A stretch of DNA of 64,000 bases from NCBI GenBank assembly GCA_902776665.1, contig CACYQZ010000002.1, forward strand, positions 10,329 through 74,328, read 5' to 3'. Made by a program: the position numbers and the translations under genes. Each line of letters opens with the position of its first letter. The stretch's first letter is position 1. Shown piece by piece: positions 760 to 3,828 of the stretch. Below the pieces are notes generated by a model. The model searched no databases. It was not told the origin of the DNA and worked only from the letters and a program-made list of their open reading frames with translations. This DNA comes from an uncultured Prevotellaceae bacterium. GTDB lineage: Bacteria > Bacteroidota > Bacteroidia > Bacteroidales > Bacteroidaceae.

Positions 760-1275
760 CTACTCCAGAATCTTGATGGCGACGGACTTGAGTTGCTGCC
801 ATCCGGCGCGGTCGGTGACGCGAATCATGAAATGATAGTCGCCAGGCGTGGCGTCGGCAGGGATTTTCAGGTCGTTGCGAGCCACGAAGCGTTTCACTTG
901 GTAGGGAATTTCATACGTGAATGTCGCTTTCCACGGGGTTCCCTCGTCGTGGTGGTCGTCGCCATGATCATCGTCGTCGTCACATTCATGGTCGTGGTCG
1001 CCCTCGGTGCTGTGGCTGTGGTGGTCGAAATTGCTGTGGATTTCGAGGGCATAGCCGCCCAGTCCGCCATTGTCGGTAAACACGTAGTTGAAAGCGATAA
1101 CCTCGCCACGATGGTAGGTCTGGCAGTTGATGGGATTGGCGGTGATGCCTTCGTCGGTAATGACGGGCGGTGTCATGTCGCGGAGGTCATCGCCGTTGTT
1201 GTCGCAAGCCGTGAAGGCAATGACGGCTGCACTGATCAGAGCCAGTGTAAGGCTCAAAAATGTCATTTTTTTCAT
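760..1275 (-). CDS. DUF4625-like His/Asp-rich lipoprotein, probable metal-binding partner of the TBDR
   Basis: Lipobox FTAC; internal FDHHSHSTEGDHDHECDDDDDHGDDHHDEG; C-terminal PGDYHFMIRVTD Ig-like strand. Confidence 0.8.
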   Translation of the reverse strand: MKKMTFLSLTLALISAAVIAFTACDNNGDDLRDMTPPVITDEGITANPINCQTYHRGEVIAFNYVFTDNGGLGGYALEIHSNFDHHSHSTEGDHDHECDDDDDHGDDHHDEGTPWKATFTYEIPYQVKRFVARNDLKIPADATPGDYHFMIRVTDRAGWQQLKSVAIKILE

Positions 1276-1319: not shown

Positions 1320-3410
1320 TCAAAATTCCATTCCAATCATCAGCGACACATTCCGCCCGGGTTCGGGCACGTCGATGAGTCGATAGTAACTGGTGTGGTC
1401 GTAGTAGCGACGATTCAGCAGGTTGTCGGCGTGAAGGGTAAGTTTCAACGTCTTGTTGCGCAACGAAAAGTCTTTTCCTGCCGAGAAATTCAGTGTCCAA
1501 TAGCCTGCCGTGGGCTTTTCGGGCGGCACAATTTCGTTTTGCGCGCCTACGACGTGCGCGTTCAACTTGAAAAATCCCTCACCGTGCCAGTCGTACGAAT
1601 ATTTCACGTCGGCATCGACCGACCAAGGCGTCGAAAATGGCAGTGTAAAGCCTTTTTTCTCGCCCGAGCGTTGTCGTGCATAGAGATATTCGCCCTTCAA
1701 CTCGGTTTCCCAATGACGATTCATCCGCCAACTGGCCTGCGCCTCGACGCCGTAGCGAAGCACTCGTGCCTGGGTGTAGTGGTAGAGTTGCAGTCCCTCG
1801 ACGAAGGTGGGCGTGGGGTTCAGGTAGATGTAGTTCGGGAAATAATTGAGATAGGGATCGACTTGGATGCAGAAGATTTCATTGTCCCAATGGATGCCGA
1901 CATCGACCTGATACGACTCCTCGGGATCGAGTTCGGCATTGCCTCGCTCGTAGCGGAAAATGTGGTAGTTCACACCATTGGCACCGAGTTCTTTCGGGAT
2001 GGGAACGCGGAAACTCTTTCCGACATTGGCCTTCACCACCCAGTAGCCCGTGGCGTAGTTGATGCCTGCCGACCACGTGATGCTGTTGAAATGGCGATGA
2101 AGCCGTGCCGAGCGCTGCAAATAGGCCGAATCGGTGTCGGAAATCGGCGTTTGATACCAATCGTGATAACTCTGAATCTTCGTCTGGGCGTGGTCGTAGC
2201 GCATTCCGGCGTTCAGTTTCAGATGTTCGCAGACGGTAAAACGGTCGAAAGCATAGGCTCCGAGGCTCAGCGTCTCGAAATCGGGAATAATAAAACCCCA
2301 TCCACTGCGCCGGTTGTGCTGATATTCGGCACTCGCACCGACGTTCAGTTCGTGACGCTCGCCGAGTTGCTGGCTCAAACTAAGAATCGCCGTCCACGTG
2401 CTTTTGTCGAATCGTCGTTCTAAAGTGCCGTCGGGCGTAGGCATATAGCCGTGGCTGATGGGTTCGGAATGTTCTTCGCGCAGGTTGCGCTGGTAAGCCA
2501 GATTCGCCTTCGCGGTGGTCTTTTCGGTGTGCCAAACGGTATGACTCGTAACTTTCAGATGGTTCACCCACTGATACGGCAGGTCGATGTCGCGCCGCGA
2601 ACGGTCGTAGTCGATGTCGGAAAGTCGCACCTCCAAACCATGGGCATTGGCGAAAAATCCGCTCTTCGAATAACTGTCGGAAATGCGCACATCGGTGTGG
2701 AAATGGTAGCCGGCATAGCCGAACATCACGCTACCGTCGCGCTCCAGACCGGCAGTGTTGCGCAGTCGCTGGTCTTTCAGACGGATGTAGTACGAATAAT
2801 ATTGTATGCTGTCCGTCGGCACGCGATAGTCGGCATAGTCGATGAAAGTGGCGTTGGCACGGTAGAAAAAGCGACCGTGGCGACCGCCGACCTTCGCCGA
2901 AAGGCCGATTTGCTCGTTGTTCGTGCGACCAAACAGTTGCACGGCACTGCTGAACGGCTCCGTCGGCACGTGGTTGGTGTAAAGATTGAGCACGCCGCCG
3001 ATGGCATCGCTACCGTAAAGCAACGCCGCCGGACCTTTGATGACCTCGGCGCGATCGACGGCAAACTGGTCGATTTCCAGTCCGTGGTCGTCGCCCCACT
3101 GCTGTCCCTCGTGCTTGATACCGTCTTCACTGACAGCCATTCGGTTAAAACCGAGTCCGCGAATCGTGGGCTTCGACTGCCCCGACCCGATGCTCATAGC
3201 CTTCACACCCGGAATGCTTTCGAGCGTCTGCATCAGACTGCCGGCGAAATGTTGTTGAAGGTAGTCGTGGCTAACCTGTACTGACGACTGCGATGAACGC
3301 ATCTGATAGTCGCGTTGCCGCTGTCCCTTCACCGTCACGTTTTGAAGCGTTACGGTGGTGTCGGGCGGACTCACGACCGTCAGCATAGCAGCCAAAAATA
3401 AATTGATCAT
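1320..3410 (-). CDS. TonB-dependent outer-membrane receptor, probably for a metal
   Basis: 696 aa; TonB-box-like LQNVTV; plug motifs PGV..IRGLGFNR and EVIKGPAALLYGSDAIGGVLN; C-terminal PGRNVSLMIGMEF ending in Phe. Confidence 0.92.
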   Translation of the reverse strand: MINLFLAAMLTVVSPPDTTVTLQNVTVKGQRQRDYQMRSSQSSVQVSHDYLQQHFAGSLMQTLESIPGVKAMSIGSGQSKPTIRGLGFNRMAVSEDGIKHEGQQWGDDHGLEIDQFAVDRAEVIKGPAALLYGSDAIGGVLNLYTNHVPTEPFSSAVQLFGRTNNEQIGLSAKVGGRHGRFFYRANATFIDYADYRVPTDSIQYYSYYIRLKDQRLRNTAGLERDGSVMFGYAGYHFHTDVRISDSYSKSGFFANAHGLEVRLSDIDYDRSRRDIDLPYQWVNHLKVTSHTVWHTEKTTAKANLAYQRNLREEHSEPISHGYMPTPDGTLERRFDKSTWTAILSLSQQLGERHELNVGASAEYQHNRRSGWGFIIPDFETLSLGAYAFDRFTVCEHLKLNAGMRYDHAQTKIQSYHDWYQTPISDTDSAYLQRSARLHRHFNSITWSAGINYATGYWVVKANVGKSFRVPIPKELGANGVNYHIFRYERGNAELDPEESYQVDVGIHWDNEIFCIQVDPYLNYFPNYIYLNPTPTFVEGLQLYHYTQARVLRYGVEAQASWRMNRHWETELKGEYLYARQRSGEKKGFTLPFSTPWSVDADVKYSYDWHGEGFFKLNAHVVGAQNEIVPPEKPTAGYWTLNFSAGKDFSLRNKTLKLTLHADNLLNRRYYDHTSYYRLIDVPEPGRNVSLMIGMEF

Positions 3411-3458
3411 ACTGAATGTCTATTTGAAAAAACAATAATGAGGTGGAAAATTGATTTT

Positions 3459-3797
3459 TCAAACGACGGGAGGGGCTCTCGGCACGAGAACGCCGCAAAT
3501 TCGGTGGGTTCGATGGTTGATTTGGATGCTGAAAAGCGGTGAAACTCTTCGAAAACAATGGACGATTGCCACAACGGCAGCCAACAGAATCGGCAGCGAG
3601 AGAAATTCGCAGAGCAGACACGGGTGCATCGGCAAGGTCTGTTGTCCGAAATGTCCGCCACAATGGTGATCGACACAGGCTTCGCAACTGTTTTGCGTGC
3701 CCGTCGGAGTTTCATGAACATGGAGCGACGACAAAAGCAGCATTGGCAGAAACACTGCCAACAGCACCCAAGAGGCTATGCGTCTTTTCGTTTCCAT
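3459..3797 (-). CDS. Cys/His-rich membrane leader protein with C-terminal RAPP motif (DUF2946/CruR-like putative arrest peptide)
   Basis: 112 aa: N-terminal hydrophobic helix, HVH, CEACVDHHCGGH, HPCLLC, second hydrophobic stretch, ends PRAPPVV. Stop is 48 nt upstream of the TBDR ATG. Confidence 0.75.
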   Translation of the reverse strand: METKRRIASWVLLAVFLPMLLLSSLHVHETPTGTQNSCEACVDHHCGGHFGQQTLPMHPCLLCEFLSLPILLAAVVAIVHCFRRVSPLFSIQINHRTHRICGVLVPRAPPVV

Positions 3798-3820: not shown

Positions 3821-3828
3821 CAAAATTA
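3821..3828 (-). promoter_or_regulatory. -7 element (TAATTTTG) for the leader-TBDR-lipoprotein operon
   Basis: TAnnTTTG 24 nt upstream of the leader ATG; divergent from the mnmG promoter. Confidence 0.6.

Follow-up and report, generated by a model that had tools for sequence, protein, structure and literature searches.

A leader-encoded RAPP motif and a conserved hairpin as a candidate stall-melted platform ahead of a TonB-dependent receptor gene in Prevotellaceae

Introduction

The logic of a stem-loop that is melted by a stalled ribosome has been shown experimentally for CutF-cutO, SecM and MifM (PMC9973294). In Rhodobacter capsulatus, CutF, a DUF2946 protein, stalls during its own translation and melts the stem-loop that shields cutO (PMC9973294; bioRxiv 10.1101/2025.02.05.636593). 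In Bordetella pertussis, CruR with its RAPP motif controls the TonB transporter BfrG (PMC9426467), and arrest at RAP|P has been demonstrated in vitro (PMC12992588); the spacer between the CxxC motif and RAPP is 45 residues long (±1-2) in more than 2000 proteins (PMC9426467). According to toeprints and structures for RAPP and CruR, the first Pro codon occupies the P site of the arrested ribosome, and the second occupies its A site (PMC10951233, PMC12992588). Surveys across Gram-negative phyla have listed RAPP/RGPP uORFs upstream of TonB receptors (PMC12992588), and CutF-like proteins are reported to be abundant in Bacteroidota, where TonB-type genes are frequent neighbours (PMC9973294).

Here we analyse, in a rumen Prevotella, a leader ORF, an intergenic hairpin and a TonB-dependent receptor gene in a 64-kb stretch of DNA from an uncultured Prevotellaceae bacterium, the whole of which is called the window below. 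The kind of system proposed for this locus is already known, namely a stall-melted stem-loop of the CutF/SecM type placed ahead of a CruR type of target. Like CutF-cutO, the locus has a leader that is small and exported, in which a Cys metal motif precedes the Pro-rich stall site at the C-terminus by about 45 residues, and a cis-acting intergenic stem-loop that shields the ribosome-binding region of the target; this stem-loop is melted by the stalled ribosome in the case of CutF, and the same is proposed here. The CutF-cutO stem holds an anti-Shine-Dalgarno sequence, whereas the stem in the window covers an A/U-rich region without a Shine-Dalgarno (SD) sequence. CutF carries a CxxxC motif, whereas the window leader has CxxC, an extra His/Cys cluster and a second hydrophobic segment, and lies below the Pfam threshold for DUF2946. 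CutF regulates a multicopper oxidase and stalls for longer with copper, whereas the target in the window is an uptake receptor, for which a sign of regulation opposite to that of CutF would therefore be expected.

With CruR-bfrG the locus shares an N-terminal export signal, CxxC, a length-conserved spacer (45 residues in CruR, 43±1 here), RAPP near the stop codon, a TonB-dependent transporter gene downstream followed by a further gene and, as proposed here, a stall that would correspond to the receptor being ON. It differs from CruR-bfrG, where Rho-dependent termination takes place over a GC-rich spacer of 162 nt and for which no hairpin that occludes the start has been described, in having a 48-nt A/U-rich spacer and a hairpin that abuts the AUG. 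SecM-secA and MifM-yidC2 resemble the model put forward below, as they arrest near the C-terminus and the stalled ribosome disrupts a stem-loop over the downstream initiation region, and like the window leader they have a fixed-length linker between the membrane-targeting segment and the arrest point. Unlike the window leader, however, they sense Sec/YidC activity, regulate the localisation machinery and occlude a SD sequence, and their sequences are unrelated to it. ApdA, ApdP and the 'TonB-related' uORFs also combine an R[A/G]PP arrest motif near the C-terminus with a localisation signal (PMC7897499, PMC10951233, PMC12992588).

The RAPP/RGPP surveys, unlike the present work, contain no analysis of the RNA platform downstream of the motif, nor of Prevotellaceae specifically. 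In the literature that we searched, we found nothing on such an RNA platform in Bacteroidota or on its anchoring to the arrest codon, and nothing on the occlusion of an SD-less start region or on platform diversity within one leader family. The locus is set apart from the known cases by its phylum, which is largely without SD use, by its TonB-receptor target and by sister loci that have a terminator-like hairpin or none.

Results

The leader is the first gene of a presumed operon

The relevant genes all lie on the minus strand of the window (Table 1). The leader is the first gene, ahead of a ZnuD-like TonB-dependent receptor gene, from which it is separated by 48 nt, and then of a DUF4625 gene, which corresponds to a leader in an operon with metal-homeostasis genes. 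The Bacteroidota −7 promoter consensus is TAnnTTTG; a putative box of this type lies upstream of the leader, and none was found by eye in the spacer between the leader and the receptor. An internal promoter for the receptor was rejected, given the lack of this box in the spacer and the sigma-70-like calls not being of the Bacteroidota type. It appears that a single promoter serves the leader, the receptor and the DUF4625 gene, and that the three are co-transcribed.

Table 1. Positions of the features of the leader-receptor locus in the window
Feature	Position	Strand	Basis or remark
Putative Bacteroidota-type −7 promoter box TAATTTTG, upstream of leader	3821..3828	−	Read directly from the sequence
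Leader ORF, 112 aa	3797..3459	−	Ends ...VPRAPPVV*, stop UGA 3461-3459
Codons AGA GCC CCU CCC (R107 A108 P109 P110)	3468..3479	−	Sequence and conservation
5′ arm: V111, V112, UGA stop, 9 nt of spacer	3450..3467	−	Starts +6 from first P-site base (predicted arrest state); RNAfold and repeat finder
Loop, 13 nt	3437..3449	−	RNAfold
3′ arm	3418..3436	−	Covers −26 to −8 of the receptor AUG
TonB-dependent receptor, 696 aa	1320..3410, AUG 3410-3408	−	Plug and barrel domains
DUF4625 protein, third gene of the presumed operon	760..1275	−	Domain search

The best characterised relatives of the receptor are ZnuD (zinc) and haem receptors, and the metal sensed by the leader, zinc or copper, may therefore be zinc. 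The receptor of the window and its orthologues begin MI(N/T)LLLA..., with an n-region that lacks a positive charge, which is unusual for the signal peptide of an outer-membrane protein. The other receptor clade found downstream of leaders of this family begins MKxKYIILLLLC..., often followed by a His-rich run, and has a conventional-looking signal peptide.

The leader is a remote relative of DUF2946 proteins

The window leader consists of an N-terminal hydrophobic segment, a His/Cys cluster (HVH, CxxC, HHCGGH, CLLC), a second hydrophobic segment, a variable 43-aa spacer and RAPPVV*; RAPP is thus followed by two codons (V111 and V112) and the stop, just as the initial annotation had read it. 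The family alignment runs in the order of an N-terminal hydrophobic segment, HxH, CxxC, H-x-GH, C[VL]LC, a second hydrophobic stretch, about 35 unconserved residues, a near-invariant R[A/G]PP and 1-9 further residues. A word-indexed search returned 33 homologues of the leader and an exhaustive profile search 639 cluster representatives (E≤1e-3). The family is present as one copy in the window's own genome, in 39 of 201 genomes of the same taxonomic family (14 of 35 genera) and in 3 of 201 across the order, including the window's own.

In 80 loci taken from genome assemblies, R[A/G]PP is present in 81 of 82 leader ORFs, 1-9 codons ahead of the stop, and most of these loci have a receptor of about 700 aa downstream after 33-150 nt. 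The spacer from CxxC to R[A/G]PP measures 43 residues in 74 of 79 distinct proteins, 42 in three and 44 in two. Its residues vary and its length is fixed (43±1), as is typical of the DUF2946 family, at a value two residues below that of CruR.

Searches of Pfam and NCBIfam gave nothing for the window leader, and PF11162 (DUF2946, gathering score of 23.7 bits) did not match it even at E≤10, nor did it match anything else in the window's own genome. The window leader thus falls short of the gathering score, and 14 of 34 relatives give sub-threshold matches (best E 0.0017). PF11162 is by far the commonest weak match among these 34, and one of the matches is collinear over profile positions 8-117 of 117. 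When the leader-family alignment was compared by hhalign with nine Bacteroidota ORFs at or nearly at the PF11162 cut-off, the match reached a probability of 96.9% (E 1.7e-10), a level that indicates remote homology. The match is collinear along its whole length, taking in the N-terminal helix, HxH, CxxC and R[A/G]PP, and the short motifs and hydrophobic segments add to the score. Because of the sub-threshold PF11162 matches and the collinear profile-profile match, the leader is treated here as a remote, sub-threshold relative of the DUF2946 proteins CruR and CutF.

A 17-bp stem covers the region upstream of the receptor AUG

The initial annotation had described an inverted repeat at 3423-3436 and 3450-3463, which was reproduced by a repeat finder (14 nt, one mismatch, 93% complementary, 13 nt between the arms). 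Among the 12 short-range inverted repeats found in the window with the same settings, this one alone reaches at least 90% complementarity. Its placement on the mRNA was likewise correct, with the UGA (3461-3459) inside the 5′ arm (3463-3450) and the 3′ arm (3436-3423) covering −26 to −13 of the receptor AUG. When folded by RNAfold, the 14-bp repeat forms and grows to a stem of 17 bp (3467-3450 with 3436-3418) that contains one G.U pair, one 1x1 mismatch, one bulge and three G-C pairs. Its 81-nt context has a minimum free energy of −13.5 kcal/mol (z = −3.53), which none of 200 dinucleotide-shuffled sequences matched; the isolated hairpin has −10.9 kcal/mol. The hairpin was confirmed as real and non-random, and its stem is A/U-rich and weak to only moderately stable.

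The stem-loop includes the ribosome-binding region of the receptor and, unlike in the classical cases, contains neither a SD nor an anti-SD sequence. In the 96%-identical orthologue (L001), the loop differs and the stems are identical to those of the window. A scan of the region against Rfam 15 returned no family, the sole match being a chance-level snoRNA on the opposite strand (E 0.15). An intrinsic terminator was considered for the window and rejected: 3 of the 17 pairs are G-C, the stem is followed by AUUCAGUAUG and there is no terminator call at 3418-3467.

The pairing is conserved while the arm sequences change

We examined the pairing in 70 non-redundant Prevotellaceae loci by a duplex test, in which the 3′ end of each leader was set against its own receptor start or those of the other loci (RNAduplex, with equal free optimisation for all pairs). 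The cognate pairs had a mean energy of −8.67 kcal/mol, compared to −6.26 kcal/mol for the non-cognate pairs, a value reached by 0 of 10,000 permutations (p<1e-4). The cognate energies are bimodal, with 28 loci that are strong and specific by a strict cut-off, or about 36 by rank alone. The window duplex (−13.9 kcal/mol) ranks 1 of 69, and only its 96%-identical orthologue does better. The arm sequences differ between loci, each with its own complement (GUCGUUUGAAAAAUCAAU, UUUUUGAAUGAGAUUA, CGUGUCGGUU, GUUUUUAUUGUG, CAUGCCUAUAGC, CAUUCUGUAACUUUAU), and loop lengths extend from about 8 nt to over 100 nt, with occasional bulges and G.U pairs.

In ten close loci, aligned by sequence only without fitting to the structure, a 12-bp stem is 78% paired and 6 of its 12 pairs have changed on both sides. 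Their covariation scores 0.243, whereas shuffles give 0.149 and none of the 500 attains the observed value; slid registers are all worse. An alignment of 21 divergent loci (MAFFT and RNAalifold) predicted no pairs, because the loops differ in length by up to 100 nt and the 3′ arms were misaligned. In summary, the stem first seen in the window is conserved in homologous loci, in about 28-36 of the 70 (some 40-50%), the clade of the window among them, with cognate pairing and both-sided changes.

The remaining half or so of the loci, mostly with RGPP leaders and a different receptor clade, show no start-occluding pairing and, therefore, the hairpin is not essential to the regulation of the family. 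The ratio of RAPP to RGPP is 26:2 in the hairpin loci and 15:27 elsewhere (Fisher p = 1e-6, 70 loci), a difference for which phylogeny is a likely confounder. In Prevotella sp. RGIG9172 (L004), two tandem leaders (124 and 120 aa, both with RAPP and a tail) precede a single receptor gene, and the hairpin to the receptor start comes from the proximal leader only.

A second hairpin is predicted in the window at 3380-3415 (minus strand), in which the AUG region (UCAGUAUG) is paired with receptor codons 9-11 (UAUGCUGA). Its cognate specificity ranks 3 of 69 in the window and has a median rank of 20-28 across loci, and it is not conserved across the leader family. According to the folding model, this hairpin over the AUG could limit the effect of the main stem.

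The stem is anchored on the predicted arrest site

In the predicted arrest state of the window, the P site is occupied by P109 (3473-3471) and the A site by P110 (3470-3468), and the first base of the stem comes directly after this predicted A-site codon. The position at which the 5′ arm starts to pair is +1 to +11 from the first P-site base in each of the 28 hairpin loci (mean 5.4, sd 2.7), with tails of 1-6 codons after the two Pro codons. Counted from the stop codon, the same position runs from −18 to −4 (sd 4.4). In loci with six-codon tails and spacers of 130-149 nt, the arm nonetheless begins inside the ORF, directly after the Pro codons. Since the 5′ arm tracks the P-site codon whatever the length of the tail, it is the arrest site, and not the stop codon, that anchors the structure. 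The link between the stem and the leader stop codon, which the initial annotation had drawn, stands in so far as the UGA lies inside the 5′ arm of the window; across loci, it gives way to the arrest site.

Toeprinting and helicase studies have established that the ribosome extends over about 13-15 nt of mRNA beyond the first base of its P site. With its start at +1 to +11, the 5′ arm is therefore within reach of a ribosome arrested at RAP|P, and the share of stem pairs that lie within +13 averages 48% in the 28 hairpin loci. In the window, where the first paired base is at +6, 8 of the 17 pairs, including all the G-C pairs, fall within the span of the ribosome, and the remaining nine A/U-rich pairs are worth −0.6 kcal/mol. 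When a ribosome was placed at RAP|P in constrained folds of the window, the probability that the 3′ arm is paired fell from 0.87 to 0.47-0.58. The accessibility of the region from −20 to +9, computed with long flanks, increased from 0.24 to 0.45 in the window and from a mean of 0.42 to 0.53 in the hairpin loci, which is a modest gain. Across the 28 hairpin loci, the 3′ arm ends between −19 and +8 relative to the AUG, on average at −7, which is within the region bound by the 30S subunit. By established ribosome geometry, some 28 nt would separate the front edge of the stalled ribosome from the footprint of a 30S subunit at the AUG, so that no steric clash is expected.

Other hairpins occur in sister loci

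Nine of the 42 loci without a start-occluding hairpin (L025, L039, L042, L048, L049, L051, L052, L063 and L064) have a GC-richer hairpin of −8.5 to −17 kcal/mol between the RAPP/RGPP codons and the receptor AUG. Its 5′ arm is formed by the R[A/G]PP codons (CCUCC with GGAGG), and a U-rich tract follows. Judged by these features, each of the nine looks like a terminator or attenuator whose formation an arrested ribosome would prevent; their loops, of 18-30 nt, are atypical for intrinsic terminators. The conditional attenuator that the initial annotation had offered as a second option for the window did not bear out there, where the hairpin has neither a U-tract nor a terminator call, and may apply to these approximately nine sister loci.

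In two loci from another class of Bacteroidota (L082 and L087), with ORFs at or just below the Pfam DUF2946 cut-off, the RAPP codons CCUCC pair with a GGAGG element that lies 5-9 nt upstream of the AUG of the downstream gene. Since the Pro-Pro codons pair with GGAGG, the arrest site itself would be the anti-SD sequence in these two loci.

Discussion

We propose that the hairpin in the window is the stall-melted, start-occluding expression platform of a nascent-chain sensor, a reading to which we give a probability of about 0.65 on the grounds of comparative analysis and folding. The idea that a stall at RAPP frees the receptor initiation region, in the manner of secM/mifM, goes back to the initial annotation. 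It is favoured by the retention of R[A/G]PP, by the cognate pairing, by the geometry relative to the arrest site and by the precedent of CutF, SecM and MifM.

Initiation in Bacteroidota, a phylum largely without SD use, needs an open A/U-rich start region and not a SD sequence. In the free mRNA, the 17-bp stem would hold the region from −26 to −8 of the receptor in a duplex and, with the start region covered in this way, the 30S subunit would load poorly. A Prevotella ribosome translating the leader would arrest at R-A-P|P, with +6 to about +13 in its mRNA channel, which is the base of the stem with all its G-C pairs. As the pairs that remain are so weak, the 3′ arm would be freed and translation of the receptor would go on until the arrest ends. 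The arrest could, by analogy with CruR, be released by the binding of metal to the exported His/Cys segment or by the insertion of the second hydrophobic segment, after which the ribosome would terminate two codons on, the stem would re-form and the synthesis of the receptor would stop.

In the constrained folding, a ribosome terminating at the UGA opened the stem as well as the stalled one did (3′ arm paired 0.45, compared to 0.47-0.58). Regulation would therefore depend on the dwell time of the ribosome. The same result, together with the fact that the 5′ arm must be crossed by every translating ribosome, fits an unregulated translational coupling, in which any ribosome passing the end of the leader unfolds the stem and the RAPP arrest serves another purpose or none. 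However, such coupling does not account for the presence of R[A/G]PP in nearly all the leader ORFs or for the fixed distance between CxxC and RAPP. Nor does it account for a 5′ arm that keeps to the arrest site and does not move with the stop codon, even in loci with spacers of 130-149 nt, and RAPP is a proven arrest motif (PMC10951233). Hence, we regard coupling without regulation as improbable.

Control could also be exerted at the level of transcription, with the stem as a pause or termination element, intrinsic or Rho-assisted as for CruR, and with the stalled ribosome preventing early termination. CruR-bfrG does use Rho-dependent termination (PMC9426467), and the nine sister loci with a GC-richer hairpin on the RAPP codons and a U-rich tract behind it would suit this explanation. 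In the window, however, AUUCAGUAUG stands in the place of a U-tract and the terminator scan is empty over the stem, and stems of the window class are A/U-rich. Their 3′ arm ends just upstream of or over the AUG, a position that matters for initiation and not for termination, and the 48-nt A/U-rich spacer was seen by eye to have no C-rich, rut-like tract. Termination as the role of the window stem thus has a rather low probability, below that of coupling.

Intercistronic hairpins often set the processing or stability of mRNAs, and the stem could in this way give rise to different leader and receptor mRNA levels, independently of any ribosome arrest. In the CutF model, untranslated mRNA is indeed degraded (PMC9973294). 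This explanation is nevertheless very unlikely, as it accounts neither for the anchoring of the 5′ arm at +1 to +11 from the arrest codon nor for a 3′ arm that abuts the AUG. Least likely of all is a palindromic operator acting at the DNA level (e.g., for a Zur- or Fur-like repressor) or a chance A/T-rich palindrome: the arms are A/T-rich, the sense and antisense folds show no overall strand preference (15 vs 13 of the 28 hairpin loci) and a sigma-70 scan calls promoter-like hexamers, not of the Bacteroidota type, inside the repeat, but complementarity is conserved among orthologous loci where the arm sequences are not, an operator would not tolerate the range of loop lengths, the bulges and the G.U pairs, no shuffle reached the observed energy, and the sense strand of the window is 2.8 kcal/mol more stable than the antisense.

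Returning to the stall-melted hairpin, the sister loci allow for a broader and more tentative reading, which we consider possible though on balance doubtful. The family would be a modular, riboswitch-like system with interchangeable RNA platforms, and the locus in the window would sense periplasmic zinc, not copper, and represent a natural start-site occlusion in a phylum largely without SD use. The sensor would be the two-segment membrane peptide with its His/Cys cluster, 43-aa spacer and R[A/G]PP. It would be combined with one of three platforms: the start-occluding hairpin anchored on the arrest site, with RAPP leaders and ZnuD-like receptors as in the window; the terminator-like hairpin with the RAPP/RGPP codons as its 5′ arm; or no structure at all, possibly with reliance on Rho.

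For the annotation of genomes, leader ORFs of 100-180 aa of this kind would be regulatory leaders and not hypothetical proteins. The sister loci with other platforms would make translational and transcriptional read-outs of one arrest module directly comparable. If the proposed mechanism is true, the locus would be a natural test case for how mRNA structure upstream of an AUG controls SD-less initiation, and the CutF/CruR principle would be extended to Bacteroidota and to a ZnuD-like receptor. The metal-uptake receptors of rumen and gut Prevotella would then be under translational control, switched by a ribosome whose own nascent chain lets it sense the envelope, and such a regulatory layer would escape transcriptomics.
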